Positions 31,320 to 40,250 of a DNA stretch of 50,301 bases are shown here, one piece after another. The position numbers and the translations under genes are program-made. This DNA is from Candidatus Uhrbacteria bacterium (GTDB taxonomy: Bacteria; Patescibacteriota; Patescibacteriia; UBA9934; GWF2-40-263), in assembly GCA_018700535.1 (NCBI GenBank), contig JABITQ010000043.1, positions 1 through 50,301 of the forward strand. Direction: 5' to 3'. The notes under the pieces are model-generated. The model was given only the letters and a program-made list of their open reading frames with translations, did not search any database and was not told the DNA's origin. How positions within the stretch are numbered: position 1 is the first letter of the stretch; each line of letters opens with the position of its first letter.

Positions 31320-31348
31320 TTGACAAATATGAGAAATCGTGGTAGCTT
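31320..31348 (+). promoter_or_regulatory. promoter TTGACA-N17-TAGCTT
   Basis: TTGACAaatatgagaaatcgtggTAGCTT, followed by a ~290-nt leader with a 13-bp hairpin caccctgtcgggg/ccccgacagggtg. Confidence 0.55.
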
Positions 31349-31644
31349 GCTTCGTCGATGACCTGAGCGATTGGTCAGATGACAAGCGAAATGTCTGCGT
31401 ATTTAAGCGGTTCAATGTATCAACAATGCATCTCCTCCTTGCCTTGTTTGAGACGTTGGACCACTTGAGTCCGCGGACAGAACCTAGTGCTGAATATATT
31501 AAGTGCTGAGTTCTGACTGCGGCAAAAACCAAAGTCAACCATCGCACCCTGTCGGGGGCGGTGTAGTTGCGGGGACAATGTCGTCCACGTAACGCCTCTA
31601 CCCCGACAGGGTGGAGTTTCAAGACCCACCCAACGGAGTAACTG

Positions 31645-33063
31645 ATGCGAATCATCGCACTGGCCATCGCGGCCGCCTTTGTGAGTGCACCTGCCATGGC
31701 GGCGGATGCCAAGGAATGCCTGAAGCTGCCCGGAGCTGTCAATGGTGACGGCGACGCGTACTGCAGCAACATCCCCGCCGACATGGTCTACGACTCGGCG
31801 ACGAAGACCGACGGGTTCAAGCCCGACTGCGACGACACCGACAGCACCATTTTCCCCGGTGCCAAGGAGGTCTACGGCGACGCCATCGACCAGGACTGCA
31901 ATGGCAGCGACGCTGAGCTCTCGGTCTCCGGACCGACACTCAGCCGCTGGCAGAGTGGGCCGGCCTACAGTGGCCGGACCTGGAGCGACAGTGTCTTCGA
32001 GACCGAGCGCGCACGCTGCGAAGCTGCCGCTGAGATGTGTGAGAACGATGATGCTCACGGTGAGCACGACCTGAGTCAGGGCTACCTGATGGTGGACCTG
32101 ATTCACGGCATCGCCCCCGCTGAGATCTTTGTCGGAAGCGTCCGCTTCGGACAGGATGGCATCCGTGAGGTTGTCAGCCTGGAGACGTGGGAATCCTACC
32201 GTCACCTTCGTGGAGCCAGCAGTGGCTCCCGTGGTCTCGGTCGCACCAGCGTCCAGAAGATGATCGCGGCTGACGCCGAGAAGCGTCAGCTCGAGCAGGA
32301 CAAGGTCGATGCGGCGCAGGACGCGAAGCTCGAGAGCCTCAAGAAGTTCGACGCAAAGATCGACAAAGATCTGGCCAAGGTCGAAAAGGAGCTCGGCGCG
32401 GCCCGAACGGACGGTACGGTGACGTACTCGTCCATCGGGGATCGGATGATGTCCCATGAGAACGCGTTCCAGAAGCTGGACGCCAAGCAGAGCAAGTTGG
32501 CGGCTCGGCAGAAGAGGAATGAAGGAGAGATCACCAAGAACACCGCGACCGCCCCCCTCGTTGAGGTGTATGCGATCGCAGGAACGGCCATGGGTCGTAC
32601 GGTCAATGCCGGTCGTCAGACTGTGCGGAAGCCGATGTCCTTGGGGGTTGGTGGAGGTGTGAACTTCGGTTCCGATCTCCCCGGCGGTCGTGCCAACATC
32701 TTCGTCGACACTTTTGTCGGTGGCGATGGCGGTGATGGCCCGGCCTTCAGCTGGTCTGGTGGTTTCGAAGGGATGCGTGATTTCGGCAACGACAATCACT
32801 TGGGTCTCTTCGGCAGCTACTCTGCTCGGTACTCCAACAGCGACAGCATGAACACGGCCGTTATCGGACGTCAGCTGCACATTGGTGTCGGTGGCGCCCG
32901 TGCCGTTTCGGGCAAAGACAATCGTCACCGTCTCGTGTTCGCACGTGCCGGAGTCGGTCCCGAAGTGGCAAGCATCGCCGGTATCGGTGGTGTTGGTGAC
33001 GATGTCGGCCTCTCTGGTCGCGTTGTCATCGGTGTCGGTGGCGGTGTTGGCGACCGCAACTGA
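31645..33063 (+). CDS. secreted protein: one MopE-type Cys/Asp motif, coiled coil, Gly-rich beta-type C-terminal region
   Basis: Signal peptide MRIIALAIAAAFVSAPAMA. CDDTDSTIFPGAKEVYGDAIDQDCNG. Preferred over antisense ORF 31420-33078, which has no signal, SD or motif. Confidence 0.7.
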   Translation: MRIIALAIAAAFVSAPAMAADAKECLKLPGAVNGDGDAYCSNIPADMVYDSATKTDGFKPDCDDTDSTIFPGAKEVYGDAIDQDCNGSDAELSVSGPTLSRWQSGPAYSGRTWSDSVFETERARCEAAAEMCENDDAHGEHDLSQGYLMVDLIHGIAPAEIFVGSVRFGQDGIREVVSLETWESYRHLRGASSGSRGLGRTSVQKMIAADAEKRQLEQDKVDAAQDAKLESLKKFDAKIDKDLAKVEKELGAARTDGTVTYSSIGDRMMSHENAFQKLDAKQSKLAARQKRNEGEITKNTATAPLVEVYAIAGTAMGRTVNAGRQTVRKPMSLGVGGGVNFGSDLPGGRANIFVDTFVGGDGGDGPAFSWSGGFEGMRDFGNDNHLGLFGSYSARYSNSDSMNTAVIGRQLHIGVGGARAVSGKDNRHRLVFARAGVGPEVASIAGIGGVGDDVGLSGRVVIGVGGGVGDRN

Positions 33064-33105
33064 TGGGTGGCTAGCCACAAACTACGAACGTGAACAAGAG
33101 GCTTA

Positions 33106-39800: not shown

Positions 39801-40167
39801 TGTGGATGAGGGGGTCACGACCACCTTCTACGCGGATGCGGACGGCGACGGCTATGGCGATGCTGCTGTGAGTTCTGATGTGTGCCTGGCTCCGTCTGGC
39901 TACGTGACGAACCGCAGGGACTGCGACGACACCGAAGAGCTGGTCAACCCCAGCATTGAGGAGTCGCGCGCAGCCGAGACATGTGAAGACGGGCTCGACA
40001 ACGACTGTAGCGGTGACGCAGACGAGGATGATGAATCCTGTGACTGCGTGAGCGATACTGCCGACACCGGGCTCTGCGAAGAAGGTGATACTGGTGGCGA
40101 CACTGCAGGCGACACTGCTGCGGGCGACACCGGCGACACCGGCGACACCGGCGATACGGGCTCCTGA
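36817..40167 (+). CDS. giant probable lipoprotein with ~15 MopE-type putative metal-binding repeats
   Basis: GLAAFSC lipobox-like N-terminus. ~15 units of DCDD.D..I.P.A.E.C...D.DC(D/N)G alternating with D.DGDGYGD...C..PSGYV. C-terminal GDTGDTGDTG tail. 1116 aa. Confidence 0.85.
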   Translation: MRLSQSILIMCGLAAFSCTPMTTKGADTSVGEDNPDDDTDDTDDTDDTAEPVGPVDADSDGIVEDDDCDDSDPNVGVADSWYVDADGDGYGDMYFDAIMSCDDPTEMDGDGNVTVHYVLNMDDCDDNFATINPDGTEWCDRIDNDCNGLVDDGWQWYLDLDMDGYGNPDVRLEGDCQGPVTDEDHWYVANADDCDDSDSEISPDALEVCDPDNIDEDCNGLADDDDPSADPSTMNVSYVDGDEDGYGDADGMTIACEVADGDVLDNTDCDDNDDDINPDGVEVCNEQDDNCDGDIDEDVTDTVYVDSDGDGYGDSSMPIEACGESSGLVFDSTDCDDTEATAYPGGIEVCGDAIDNDCSGDADGSDSTDASTWYADTDADGEGDASDSEIACTAPSGYVSDASDCDDNDSAVHTAADEVCDDVDNNCDGLTDPSSSLDVTDWYIDADSDGYGSDSGTAVTQCDQPSNYVADATDCDDAAAGVNPGETEVCDELDTDEDCNGSSDDDDAGVDTSTMTASYADGDGDGYGDATDSTTACEVPTGNTVDDTDCDDNEADVNPGATEYCDLQDNDCDGSVDEDVENVYYADVDGDGFGDSADIDEACMAPSGYVLDDTDCDDTDAAINPDATEVCDASDIDEDCNGSSDDDDSGVDLSTGTRLYADGDGDGYGDSSDNEWFCDAASGYVADSSDCDDGDSAISPSASEVCDSADNDCDGDVDEDDASDAGTWYADVDSDGFGDASSTTTACDVPSGYVSDDTDCMDTDRSVNPDATEVCNEEDDDCDGSVDEGVQNTYFLDSDSDGYGVSSGTTDACSVPSGYSANDNDCDDSDGDISPAATEVCDAADVDEDCDGDADDADSSTDTSTMTEFYADSDVDGYGDAASAAIVCDMPSGYVSDATDCDDTDDDINPAADEFCNEADDDCDGDVDEDDALDAATWYLDGDSDGFGESVSTEVACEASTGYVDDATDCDDDESDVYPGATEYCDLQDNDCDGSVDEGVTTTFYADADGDGYGDAAVSSDVCLAPSGYVTNRRDCDDTEELVNPSIEESRAAETCEDGLDNDCSGDADEDDESCDCVSDTADTGLCEEGDTGGDTAGDTAAGDTGDTGDTGDTGS
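38481..38549 (+). repeat. intragenic repeat, copy 1 (68/69 identical to 39741-39809)
   Basis: ggacgtcAacccgggcgcaacggagtactgcgacttgcaggacaacgactgcgacggatctgtggatga. Confidence 0.9.
39741..39809 (+). repeat. intragenic repeat, copy 2 (offset exactly 1260 nt = 420 codons)
   Basis: ggacgtcTacccgggcgcaacggagtactgcgacttgcaggacaacgactgcgacggatctgtggatga. Confidence 0.9.
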
Positions 40168-40194
40168 TCTCCAGAAAGATCTAGATGCCAACGG

Positions 40195-40250
40195 GCGGTC
40201 ACGTTTCCATTTTGCGAAAGCAGGATGAGAACGTGGCCGCTTTTTCTTTT
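40195..40250 (+). terminator. intrinsic terminator
   Basis: gcggtcacgtt / aacgtggccgc stem (one G.U, large loop) followed by TTTTTCTTTT. Confidence 0.6.

Follow-up and report, generated by a model that had tools for sequence, protein, structure and literature searches.

On the 50,301-nt contig JABITQ010000043.1 of a Candidatus Uhrbacteria bacterium (assembly GCA_018700535.1), which we analysed at full length and call the window, four consecutive plus-strand genes carry the PF11617 (Cu-binding_MopE) motif. We name them g1 to g4, and the block that they form the cassette. Their open reading frames (ORFs) lie at 31645-33063 (g1, 472 aa), 33398-34219 (g2, 273 aa), 34895-36481 (g3, 528 aa) and 36817-40167 (g4, 1116 aa), in agreement with the number, strand and sizes given in an earlier note on this DNA. 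The g3 frame is open from 34865 (538 aa); its likelier start is the GTG at 34895, 5 nt 3′ of an AAGGAG, from which the protein begins with MNNKFLAALLLVGIGAC, a lipoprotein signal. Upstream, the cassette is flanked by a Wzz/GNVR-type chain-length-determinant gene (30429-31073, plus strand; Pfam GNVR and Wzz), and downstream by a gene of the Wzy_C (O-antigen ligase) family (40298-41845 including its −10 element, plus strand; Pfam Wzy_C) and a conserved GT4 glycosyltransferase gene (41842-43056, plus strand). What is new is the context, namely a four-gene surface cassette conserved within a lineage of the Candidate Phyla Radiation (CPR), a maintained offset of synonymous G+C content, and two RNA motifs outside Rfam.

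Architecture of the encoded proteins

By direct reading, g1 starts with a Sec signal with an AxA cleavage site (AMA-AD), and g2 to g4 have lipobox-like N-termini, IGAC in g3 and the looser LAMAC and AFSC in g2 and g4. The lipobox pattern was a signal peptide ending in [LVI][ASTVI][GAS]C, read by eye rather than by a dedicated predictor. Orthologues of g2 to g4 have the canonical lipoboxes LAGC, VVGC and LSGC, and also TACG, in support of the secreted or lipobox-like N-termini noted earlier.

Behind the signal, g1 consists of a DxDGDG loop, one PF11617 motif, a Cys-containing region, a coiled-coil-like linker and a Gly-rich, beta-type C-terminal domain. A search of 1.84 billion representative proteins gave only 9 relatives of its non-motif part, and a word-index search with the whole protein gave no homologues beyond the motif. 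The g2 product is a small lipoprotein with a D-A/D-T low-complexity run, the motif at aa 99-128 and a Cys-containing C-terminal domain of no known family. In g3, a lipoprotein with acidic low-complexity stretches, three PF11617 motifs precede another C-terminal domain of no known family; the two C-terminal domains show no detectable relationship to each other (E = 0.02), and neither matches Pfam. The large lipoprotein g4 consists almost entirely of repeats and lacks a head domain. Summed over the four proteins, 2389 residues include 505 Asp, 134 Glu, 68 Lys+Arg and 16 His; g4 is 26% Asp, has 3 His in 1116 aa and a net charge of about −346.

One further observation concerns the last ∼160 aa of g1 (32580-33060), which are Gly-rich with alternating beta-strand-like segments and are kept in all g1 orthologues (L007, L016, L031, L053 and others; related loci are numbered with L). 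One of 11 such domains gives a weak match (E ∼1e-3) to the outer-membrane beta-barrel family PF13505, and no PDB sequence is matched. A barrel of this type would be unexpected in a CPR bacterium, which is thought to lack an outer membrane.

PF11617 motifs and repeat units

Against the gathering score of 27 bits, PF11617 matches g1 with 36.5 bits (1 copy), g3 with 72.9 bits (3 copies) and g4 with 304.1 bits (14 copies). The whole g2 protein is not matched because its D-A/D-T run masks the motif, which scores 40.7 bits when searched alone and is also detected by a hidden Markov model of the local units. Family membership, as proposed earlier, is therefore supported for g1, g3 and g4 as whole proteins and for g2 as a motif fragment. 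Among the copy numbers proposed at that time (1, 1, ∼5 and ∼15), those of g1 and g2 are right and that of g4 is fair, with 14 full motifs and a degenerate N-terminal unit, but g3 has only three full motifs and one partial.

A unit of g4 comprises 66-82 aa, with a (W/Y)YxDxDxDG(Y/F)GD loop, one Cys, P.GYV and then DCDDxDxx(I/V)NPxAxExCxxxDxDCxGxxDE. The four conserved Cys of each unit are all in paired positions. Residues D4, D6, D8 and G11, the acidic positions and the Cys, of which almost all units have four, show little or no variation, and the columns DC(D/N)D...P.A.E.C...D.(D/N)C.G are invariant in alignments of 16 units and of 66 sequences. The units are grouped into a three-unit super-repeat of 630 nt, the DNA copies of which are only 60-80% identical in a tandem-repeat search. 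The array is therefore old, and a recent expansion is ruled out.

Searching with g4 gave 6633 proteins at E ≤ 1e-10 from Bacteroidota, Myxococcota, Pseudomonadota and Patescibacteria, bearing names such as ‘putative metal-binding motif-containing protein’ or ‘MopE-related protein’; the best 120 of the 6633 are 38-59% identical to g4 over 63-96% of the length. This kind of protein is thus known, widespread and uncharacterised, and judged by their motifs g1 to g4 are new members of it. The PF11617 proteins of these other groups have the same unit in the same alternation with DxDxDG loops. The Uhrbacteria set differs from them in being a fixed four-gene cassette of a glycan locus, monocistronic with long leaders, predicted to be lipoprotein-anchored, free of fused enzymatic or lectin domains and offset from its host in third-position composition; related arrays outside Uhrbacteria are fused to lectin, FG-GAP, peptidase and fibrinogen domains.

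Conservation of the locus and divergence of the proteins

Scans with a Wzy_C alignment gave 54 metagenome loci and 20 genome loci, the named genome loci being mostly Candidatus Uhrbacteria. Orthologues of Wzy_C, which come from Uhrbacteria and Patescibacteria metagenome-assembled genomes, are 49-79% identical in more than 70 loci, and Wzz is syntenic and 62-78% identical in 9 related loci. In nearly every locus with upstream DNA, 1-4 same-strand PF11617 genes lie directly before Wzy_C and carry 1-32 units per gene, which bears out the view of an expandable family. In L007 (Patescibacteria), for instance, genes of 461, 219, 615 and 1200 aa are followed by a 444-aa gene, Wzy_C and GT4, and the gene order in L008 is the same. 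Also syntenic are a PDZ protease and a DUF5656 gene upstream, and GT4 and a second GT4 gene downstream; a genome scan with the PDZ protease as query gave no match. Five metagenome contigs, each an independent assembly, span the Wzz-g1-g2 junction, which is therefore not a chimera, and no tRNA or integrase gene is found at the cassette borders. Since the cassette occupies the same site across Uhrbacteria loci, it appears to be an old, vertically inherited part of the envelope-glycan locus of Candidatus Uhrbacteria, in the order Wzz - [cassette] - Wzy_C - GT4.

The proteins of the cassette diverge much faster than its flanks. Compared with L008, Wzy_C is 79% identical, and g1, g2, g3 and g4 are 40, 44, 48 and 57% identical; compared with L016, Wzz, Wzy_C and GT4 are 78, 69 and 60% identical, and g1 is 29% identical. 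Fast divergence relative to flanking genes is typical of exposed surface proteins. This pattern would also be expected if the products served an episymbiotic CPR cell mainly as variable antigens or as adhesins for attachment to its host, with the repeats as rigid spacers presenting variable C-terminal heads of g2 and g3. The wide variation of repeat number (1-32 units), the distinct g2 and g3 C-terminal domains of no known family and the fusion of related arrays to lectin, FG-GAP, peptidase or fibrinogen domains elsewhere all suit such a role, but the headless g4 does not, and the consensus promoters and codon bias described below suggest bulk expression. We regard a mainly adhesive or antigenic function as possible, though rather doubtful; it can coexist with the coat model discussed below, and nothing here separates the two.

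Base composition and codon bias

The earlier note had pointed to coding regions richer in G+C than low-GC spacers, and this is what we find: the cassette genes have a GC content of 0.60-0.62, compared with 0.43-0.55 in 34 other ORFs and 0.43-0.49 in the spacers. Long antisense ORFs, likewise described before, are present in the block (552, 517 and 725 aa). The same note ascribed the composition to GAC, GGC and TGC codons, an explanation that does not hold. GC at third codon positions (GC3) is 0.70-0.75 in the cassette and 0.485 in the pooled 34 other ORFs, about 0.24 higher, whereas GC at first and second positions exceeds that of the other ORFs by only 0.06-0.08, and about two thirds of the GC excess sits in synonymous third positions. 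All codon families are shifted, and codons ending in A nearly vanish from the cassette genes; fractions in the cassette and in the rest are 0.04 and 0.39 for ACA, 0.01 and 0.40 for CCA, 0.02 and 0.24 for TCA, 0.06 and 0.53 for CAA, 0.15 and 0.51 for AAA, and 0.14 and 0.60 for TTT. The non-repetitive g1 is shifted as strongly as the repeat genes.

In 47 of 47 non-redundant loci, cassette GC3 is higher than that of the adjoining Wzy_C gene, with a mean difference of +0.27 (Wilcoxon p = 2e-9). Cassette GC3 correlates with host GC3 (r = 0.63) over a host range of 0.30-0.90, with a mean logit shift of 1.45, and spacers between cassette genes stay at host GC.

A GC3 of this height could suggest a horizontally acquired island from a GC-rich donor (e.g. 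Myxococcota, in which repeats of this kind are plentiful) that has not yet become host-like in composition. The codon usage is indeed like that of a GC-rich genome (CAG 0.94, AAG 0.85, CCC/CCG 0.88), and among the best 120 of the 6633 proteins, some from Myxococcota and Bacteroidota count as nearest relatives of g4 at full length. Dozens of diverged Uhrbacteria, however, have the cassette at the same place, its spacers and promoters are of host type, and the non-motif part of g1 has relatives of the g1 type only. Since the offset is found in all 47 loci and scales with host GC3, recent import is ruled out in favour of evolution in place, as the earlier note had argued on other grounds. An ancient acquisition by the Uhrbacteria ancestor would not explain the persistence of the offset, and the island explanation as a whole is highly improbable. 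The offset rather points to a persistent force on synonymous sites of the cassette genes; candidates are a selective pressure tied to expression or to mRNA stability and, alternatively, biased gene conversion. A bias towards G- and C-ending codons is consistent with high expression.

Promoters, leaders and terminators

Each cassette gene has its own strong predicted promoter of sigma-70 type, long leader and terminator, so that the separate transcription units proposed earlier are supported. The plus-strand promoters are TTGACA-N17-TAGCTT for g1 (31320-31348) and TTGACA-N17-TAGATT for g2 (33225-33253), both with a TGn extended −10; TTGACA-N17-TATATT for g3 (34558-34586), TG-extended and with 11 of 12 consensus matches; and TTGACA-N17-TATAAA for g4 (36630-36658), also TG-extended. 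The exact TTGACA-N17-TAnnnT form that had been reported for every gene is thus present in g1, g2 and g3 but not in g4, whose −10 is TATAAA. Plus-strand terminators consisting of a hairpin and a U-run follow all four genes (g1, 33157-33192; g2, 34349-34385; g3, 36492-36558; g4, 40193-40255), as expected from the earlier note.

TTGACA-N17-TAnnnT occurs 16 times in the window, compared with 0.36 expected occurrences, and is therefore the general promoter type of this genome. The strict form TTGACA(AAA)-N17-TAnnnT is found window-wide (943, 3098, 6924, 19736, 46890), often with TGn and usually 11-77 nt before a start codon. What distinguishes the cassette from other genes of the window is the length of its leaders, the distance from −10 to start codon being 296 nt for g1, 144 nt for g2, 308 nt for g3 and 158 nt for g4, compared with 11-77 nt for the other genes. 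Folding of the leaders against shuffled controls gave z-scores of −6.5 for g1, −6.5 for g2 and −5.7 for g3; the g2 leader contains a long hairpin at about 33290-33342. A long structured leader had been claimed for each gene, and of this the length (144-308 nt) stands for all four and the structure for g1 to g3.

Conservation of the leaders is uneven. In 11 loci the orthologous g1 promoter precedes the start codon by 270-395 nt. Alignments of the g2 and g3 leaders show no deep conservation, the leaders of g2, g3 and g4 are kept only in the closest relative, L008, and blastn of the spacers gave matches only in L008 and L053. We also noticed that CGTTC(A/C)(T/A)AA recurs 7-10 nt after the −10 of cassette promoters in many loci, near the predicted transcription start (31352-31362 and 33262-33272, and the leaders of L007, L031, L052, L053 and L059).

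At the adjoining Wzy_C gene the arrangement is different. Its extended −10, TGTTACAAT at 40298-40306, ends 9 nt before the ATG, and the form TGnTACAAT is kept in >20 loci (including L008, L011, L012, L014, L016, L021 and L023), ending ∼9 nt before the start. The Wzy_C mRNA should therefore be leaderless or nearly so, in sharp contrast to the long leaders of the adjoining cassette genes. A run of CCTCCTCC before Wzy_C was considered as a candidate element and rejected, as it is not conserved.

Two hairpins with an anti-Shine–Dalgarno-like loop

The g1 leader contains H1, a 78-nt hairpin (31398-31475, plus strand) with the 9-nt apical loop UCUCCUCCU. Across loci the loop reads (U/C)CUCCUCCU; it shows CUCCUCC and is a near copy of the anti-Shine–Dalgarno end of 16S rRNA. 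In an alignment of 12 distinct sequences, 17 of 27 predicted pairs have compensatory changes, and 92.9% of cells are paired, compared with 34-43% when the partners are slid; none of 500 shuffles reaches this value. The covariance model of H1 gives one strong match per locus (63-85 bits), always in the g1 leader. No Rfam 15 family matches H1, no gathering score being reached in the block, and a permissive Rfam scan of the g1 leader (31080-31660) gave chance-level matches only. The earlier note had suggested riboswitch-like conserved leaders; only the g1 leader is deeply conserved, as a single simple hairpin and not a multi-stem aptamer. Directly 3′ of H1 we observed a second hairpin (31476-31530), whose base CATGGTCAGA ... 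TCTGACCATG is conserved and whose top is variable. It is also present in the g1 leaders of L016, L031, L032, L052 and L080, and H1 may thus belong to a two-hairpin module.

Between Wzz and g1, the minus strand has the features of a candidate divergent small RNA (sRNA) of ∼150 nt (31073-31257), with a candidate promoter TTGACC-N17-TATTCT (31257-31229), a terminal hairpin H2 (31162-31083; loop UCUCCUCCUC) and a U-tract (31082-31073). H2 matches model R1 at 32 bits, and its loop has the CUCCUCC of H1. Four loci, including L034, L053 and L080, have a minus-strand TTGACC-N17-TAnnnT promoter 60-95 nt upstream of H2. Compensatory changes affect 22 of 35 predicted pairs in a seven-sequence alignment, with 90% of cells paired, compared with 35-52% with slid partners and again 0 of 500 shuffles, and the minus strand is the one favoured by the G·U pairs. 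Conservation with covariation thus covers 7 loci; L070 and L071 differ in having an H2-like hairpin on the plus strand. On these features the H2 region looks like a divergent sRNA.

From the sequence of its loop, H1 probably controls translation by pairing with a ribosome-binding site, and H2 perhaps also pairs with ribosome-binding sites; possible partner sites are CAAGGAG before g4 and AAGGAG before g3. RNAs with C/U-rich loops that pair with Shine–Dalgarno sequences include RsaE/RoxS, the RNAIII hairpins and leaders with sequestering anti-Shine–Dalgarno sequences. H1 and H2 resemble these in exposing CUCCUCC in an apical loop, H2 as the candidate terminator hairpin of an sRNA, but they differ in that the loop almost duplicates the 3′ end of 16S rRNA and that neither hairpin has a sequence or structural match to any Rfam family.

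Calcium or copper

Every unit contains D.D.DG-type acidic clusters flanked by Cys, YxDxDxDG(Y/F)GD and C..D.(D/N)C.G..DE, and we take the DxDxDG of the units to be a classic calcium-loop signature. AlphaFold2 modelled units 9-10 of g4 with a pLDDT (predicted local distance difference test) of 96.3 from a two-unit alignment of 66 rows, almost without helices and strands; a single unit with 16 internal repeats as alignment reached 45.7. The repeat-pair prediction proposed earlier is thus confident, and a nearly all-coil model suits a module held by disulfides and metal ions. A core of 14 residues of PF11617 has been aligned in print with the teneurin C-rich core (PMC3278476), and the 1.5 Å structure of the teneurin C-rich domain shows conserved acidic residues binding three Ca2+ as they are bound in thrombospondin type 3 repeats (PMC9058538). 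Cassette units and these domains have in common Asp-rich D.D.D(G/C).G..D motifs bracketed by disulfides and a fold of nearly all coil, the disulfides and the fold being predicted for the cassette; they differ in the number of Cys (6 in teneurin and 4 per cassette unit), in Cys spacing, and in that the cassette units gave no Pfam, PDB-sequence or Foldseek match to them. By this analogy, a Ca2+-binding role fits the modules better than copper.

The other metal considered was copper. The earlier note suggested a metal (Cu/Ca) sequestering or adhesive surface layer near a copper-efflux module; taken as a copper hypothesis, the arrays would form a copper- or general-metal-sequestering surface layer working with this module, which lies ∼17 kb upstream. 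The module (10579-14100) consists of a gene for a DsbD-like membrane protein that carries fused HMA and cupredoxin-like domains and, after it, a gene for a CopA-type P-type ATPase. Its presence, the name Cu-binding_MopE of the Pfam family and the expectation that a very acidic coat would bind cations non-specifically speak for the proposal. Yet between the two regions lie ∼15 unrelated genes, a tmRNA gene and changes of strand, and the CopA and DsbD-HMA-cupredoxin genes are absent from all related loci, while synteny holds for the flanking Wzz, Wzy_C and GT4 genes. The four proteins have a His content of 0.7%, and the conserved Cys are all in paired positions.

In PDB-sequence profile searches, the motif matched only residues 13-45 of MopE* (2VOV; E = 0.003 with a deeper profile), apart from a weak match to a short part of acyloxyacyl hydrolase; these searches gave no homology to the beta-rich copper domain of MopE/CorA. 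The copper site of both MopE* and CorA is built from two His and a Trp-derived kynurenine and lies in the beta-rich part common to the two, CorA resembling only the C-terminal (MopE*) part of MopE (PMC3912023). As the match is confined to residues 13-45, outside this site, the family name ‘Cu-binding’ misdescribes the motif. The likeness between the two groups is that MopE* has one copy of the motif near its N-terminus and that both appear to be surface-associated; the cassette has neither the beta-rich copper domain nor the His/Trp(kynurenine) site, and no gene for a MauG-like di-haem peroxidase (CorB/SACCP), the partner of such proteins, was seen among the scanned ORFs of the window or the genes of L006-L008. 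The cassette modules, as read from their sequence, probably do not bind copper, and a copper-sequestering layer is very unlikely.

Other features of the window

Further along in the glycan locus, B12-binding and radical SAM domains are split over the overlapping ORFs 43853-44578 and 44565-45137, which may reflect a frameshift or a split gene. Two RNA genes are on the minus strand: the tmRNA (transfer-messenger RNA) gene at 25740-26131 (124 bits), which has a consensus promoter of its own (26316-26288), and one for tRNA-Asp(GTC) at 9135-9211.

Proposed role of the cassette

The best reading of the cassette, which we hold with modest confidence, is that it encodes a highly expressed, acidic surface coat or a set of adhesive stalks of Uhrbacteria, stabilised by Ca2+ and disulfides. 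According to this reading, g1 would be secreted by the Sec pathway and g2 to g4 would be membrane-anchored lipoproteins, whose exposed parts are chains of small modules, each with a DxDxDG loop, a PF11617 motif and two Cys pairs, most likely stiffened by disulfides and structural Ca2+. The four proteins would jointly cover the cell with an extended and extremely acidic coat, or project from its surface as adhesive stalks, and may be glycosylated by the adjoining Wzy_C-family enzyme. That every gene has a promoter near the consensus, a long stable leader and a terminator would suit high, individually set expression, and H1 with its anti-Shine–Dalgarno-like loop probably controls translation by pairing with a ribosome-binding site.

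Several points weigh against this reading. A signature-motif scan of all sequences compared revealed no EF-Tu, ribosomal-protein or similar genes as a highly expressed standard for codon usage (extension of contig ends gave only pyruvate kinase). A minimal tRNA set, moreover, would not obviously favour avoidance of A-ending codons. The structure of the g4 leader is not significant (z −1.9). Pfam and NCBIfam scans of the proteins found no S-layer (surface-layer) or cell-wall-anchor domain, only PF11617. As to calcium, Pfam at E up to 10 assigned no family but PF11617 to the units, TSP_3 thus being absent, no teneurin or thrombospondin chain was among the PDB sequence matches, and Foldseek with the two-unit model gave 0 matches in PDB or BFVD, so that the calcium assignment is drawn from motifs and not from demonstrated homology; the analogy depends on the motif reading and the published 14-residue alignment.

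Loci of S-layer glycoproteins in Gram-positive bacteria provide a comparison. In these, the structural gene lies beside an slg cluster with a Wzy_C-type O-oligosaccharyltransferase, and long 5′ untranslated regions stabilise the mRNA. The cassette is similar in its adjacency to Wzz, Wzy_C and glycosyltransferase genes, its strong predicted promoters, its long structured leaders and its acidic, putatively secreted products, and it is different in that it lacks SLH or any known S-layer domain and that three of its four proteins are predicted lipoproteins. A bolder version of the coat model would make the cassette the main Ca2+-dependent S-layer-like lattice of the cell, O-glycosylated by the product of the leaderless Wzy_C mRNA, with its lead gene under two anti-Shine–Dalgarno mimics, H1 in cis and the H2 sRNA in trans, and with GC3 under selection. 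We consider this version unlikely; if true, it would identify which proteins build the surface layer in a CPR group and add a new regulatory RNA class.

CPR bacteria (Patescibacteria) make up a large share of bacterial diversity, and because almost none of them are cultured, their envelope proteins are, to our knowledge, essentially unknown. The cassette provides concrete, lineage-conserved candidates for the exposed surface of one CPR group. For the PF11617 family, the label ‘Cu-binding’ is misleading and unsupported for these arrays. Two RNA motifs supported by covariation are added that are absent from Rfam, and a gene-specific GC3 offset that persists across host GC3 of 0.30-0.90 could help to separate codon selection from mutation bias or biased gene conversion.

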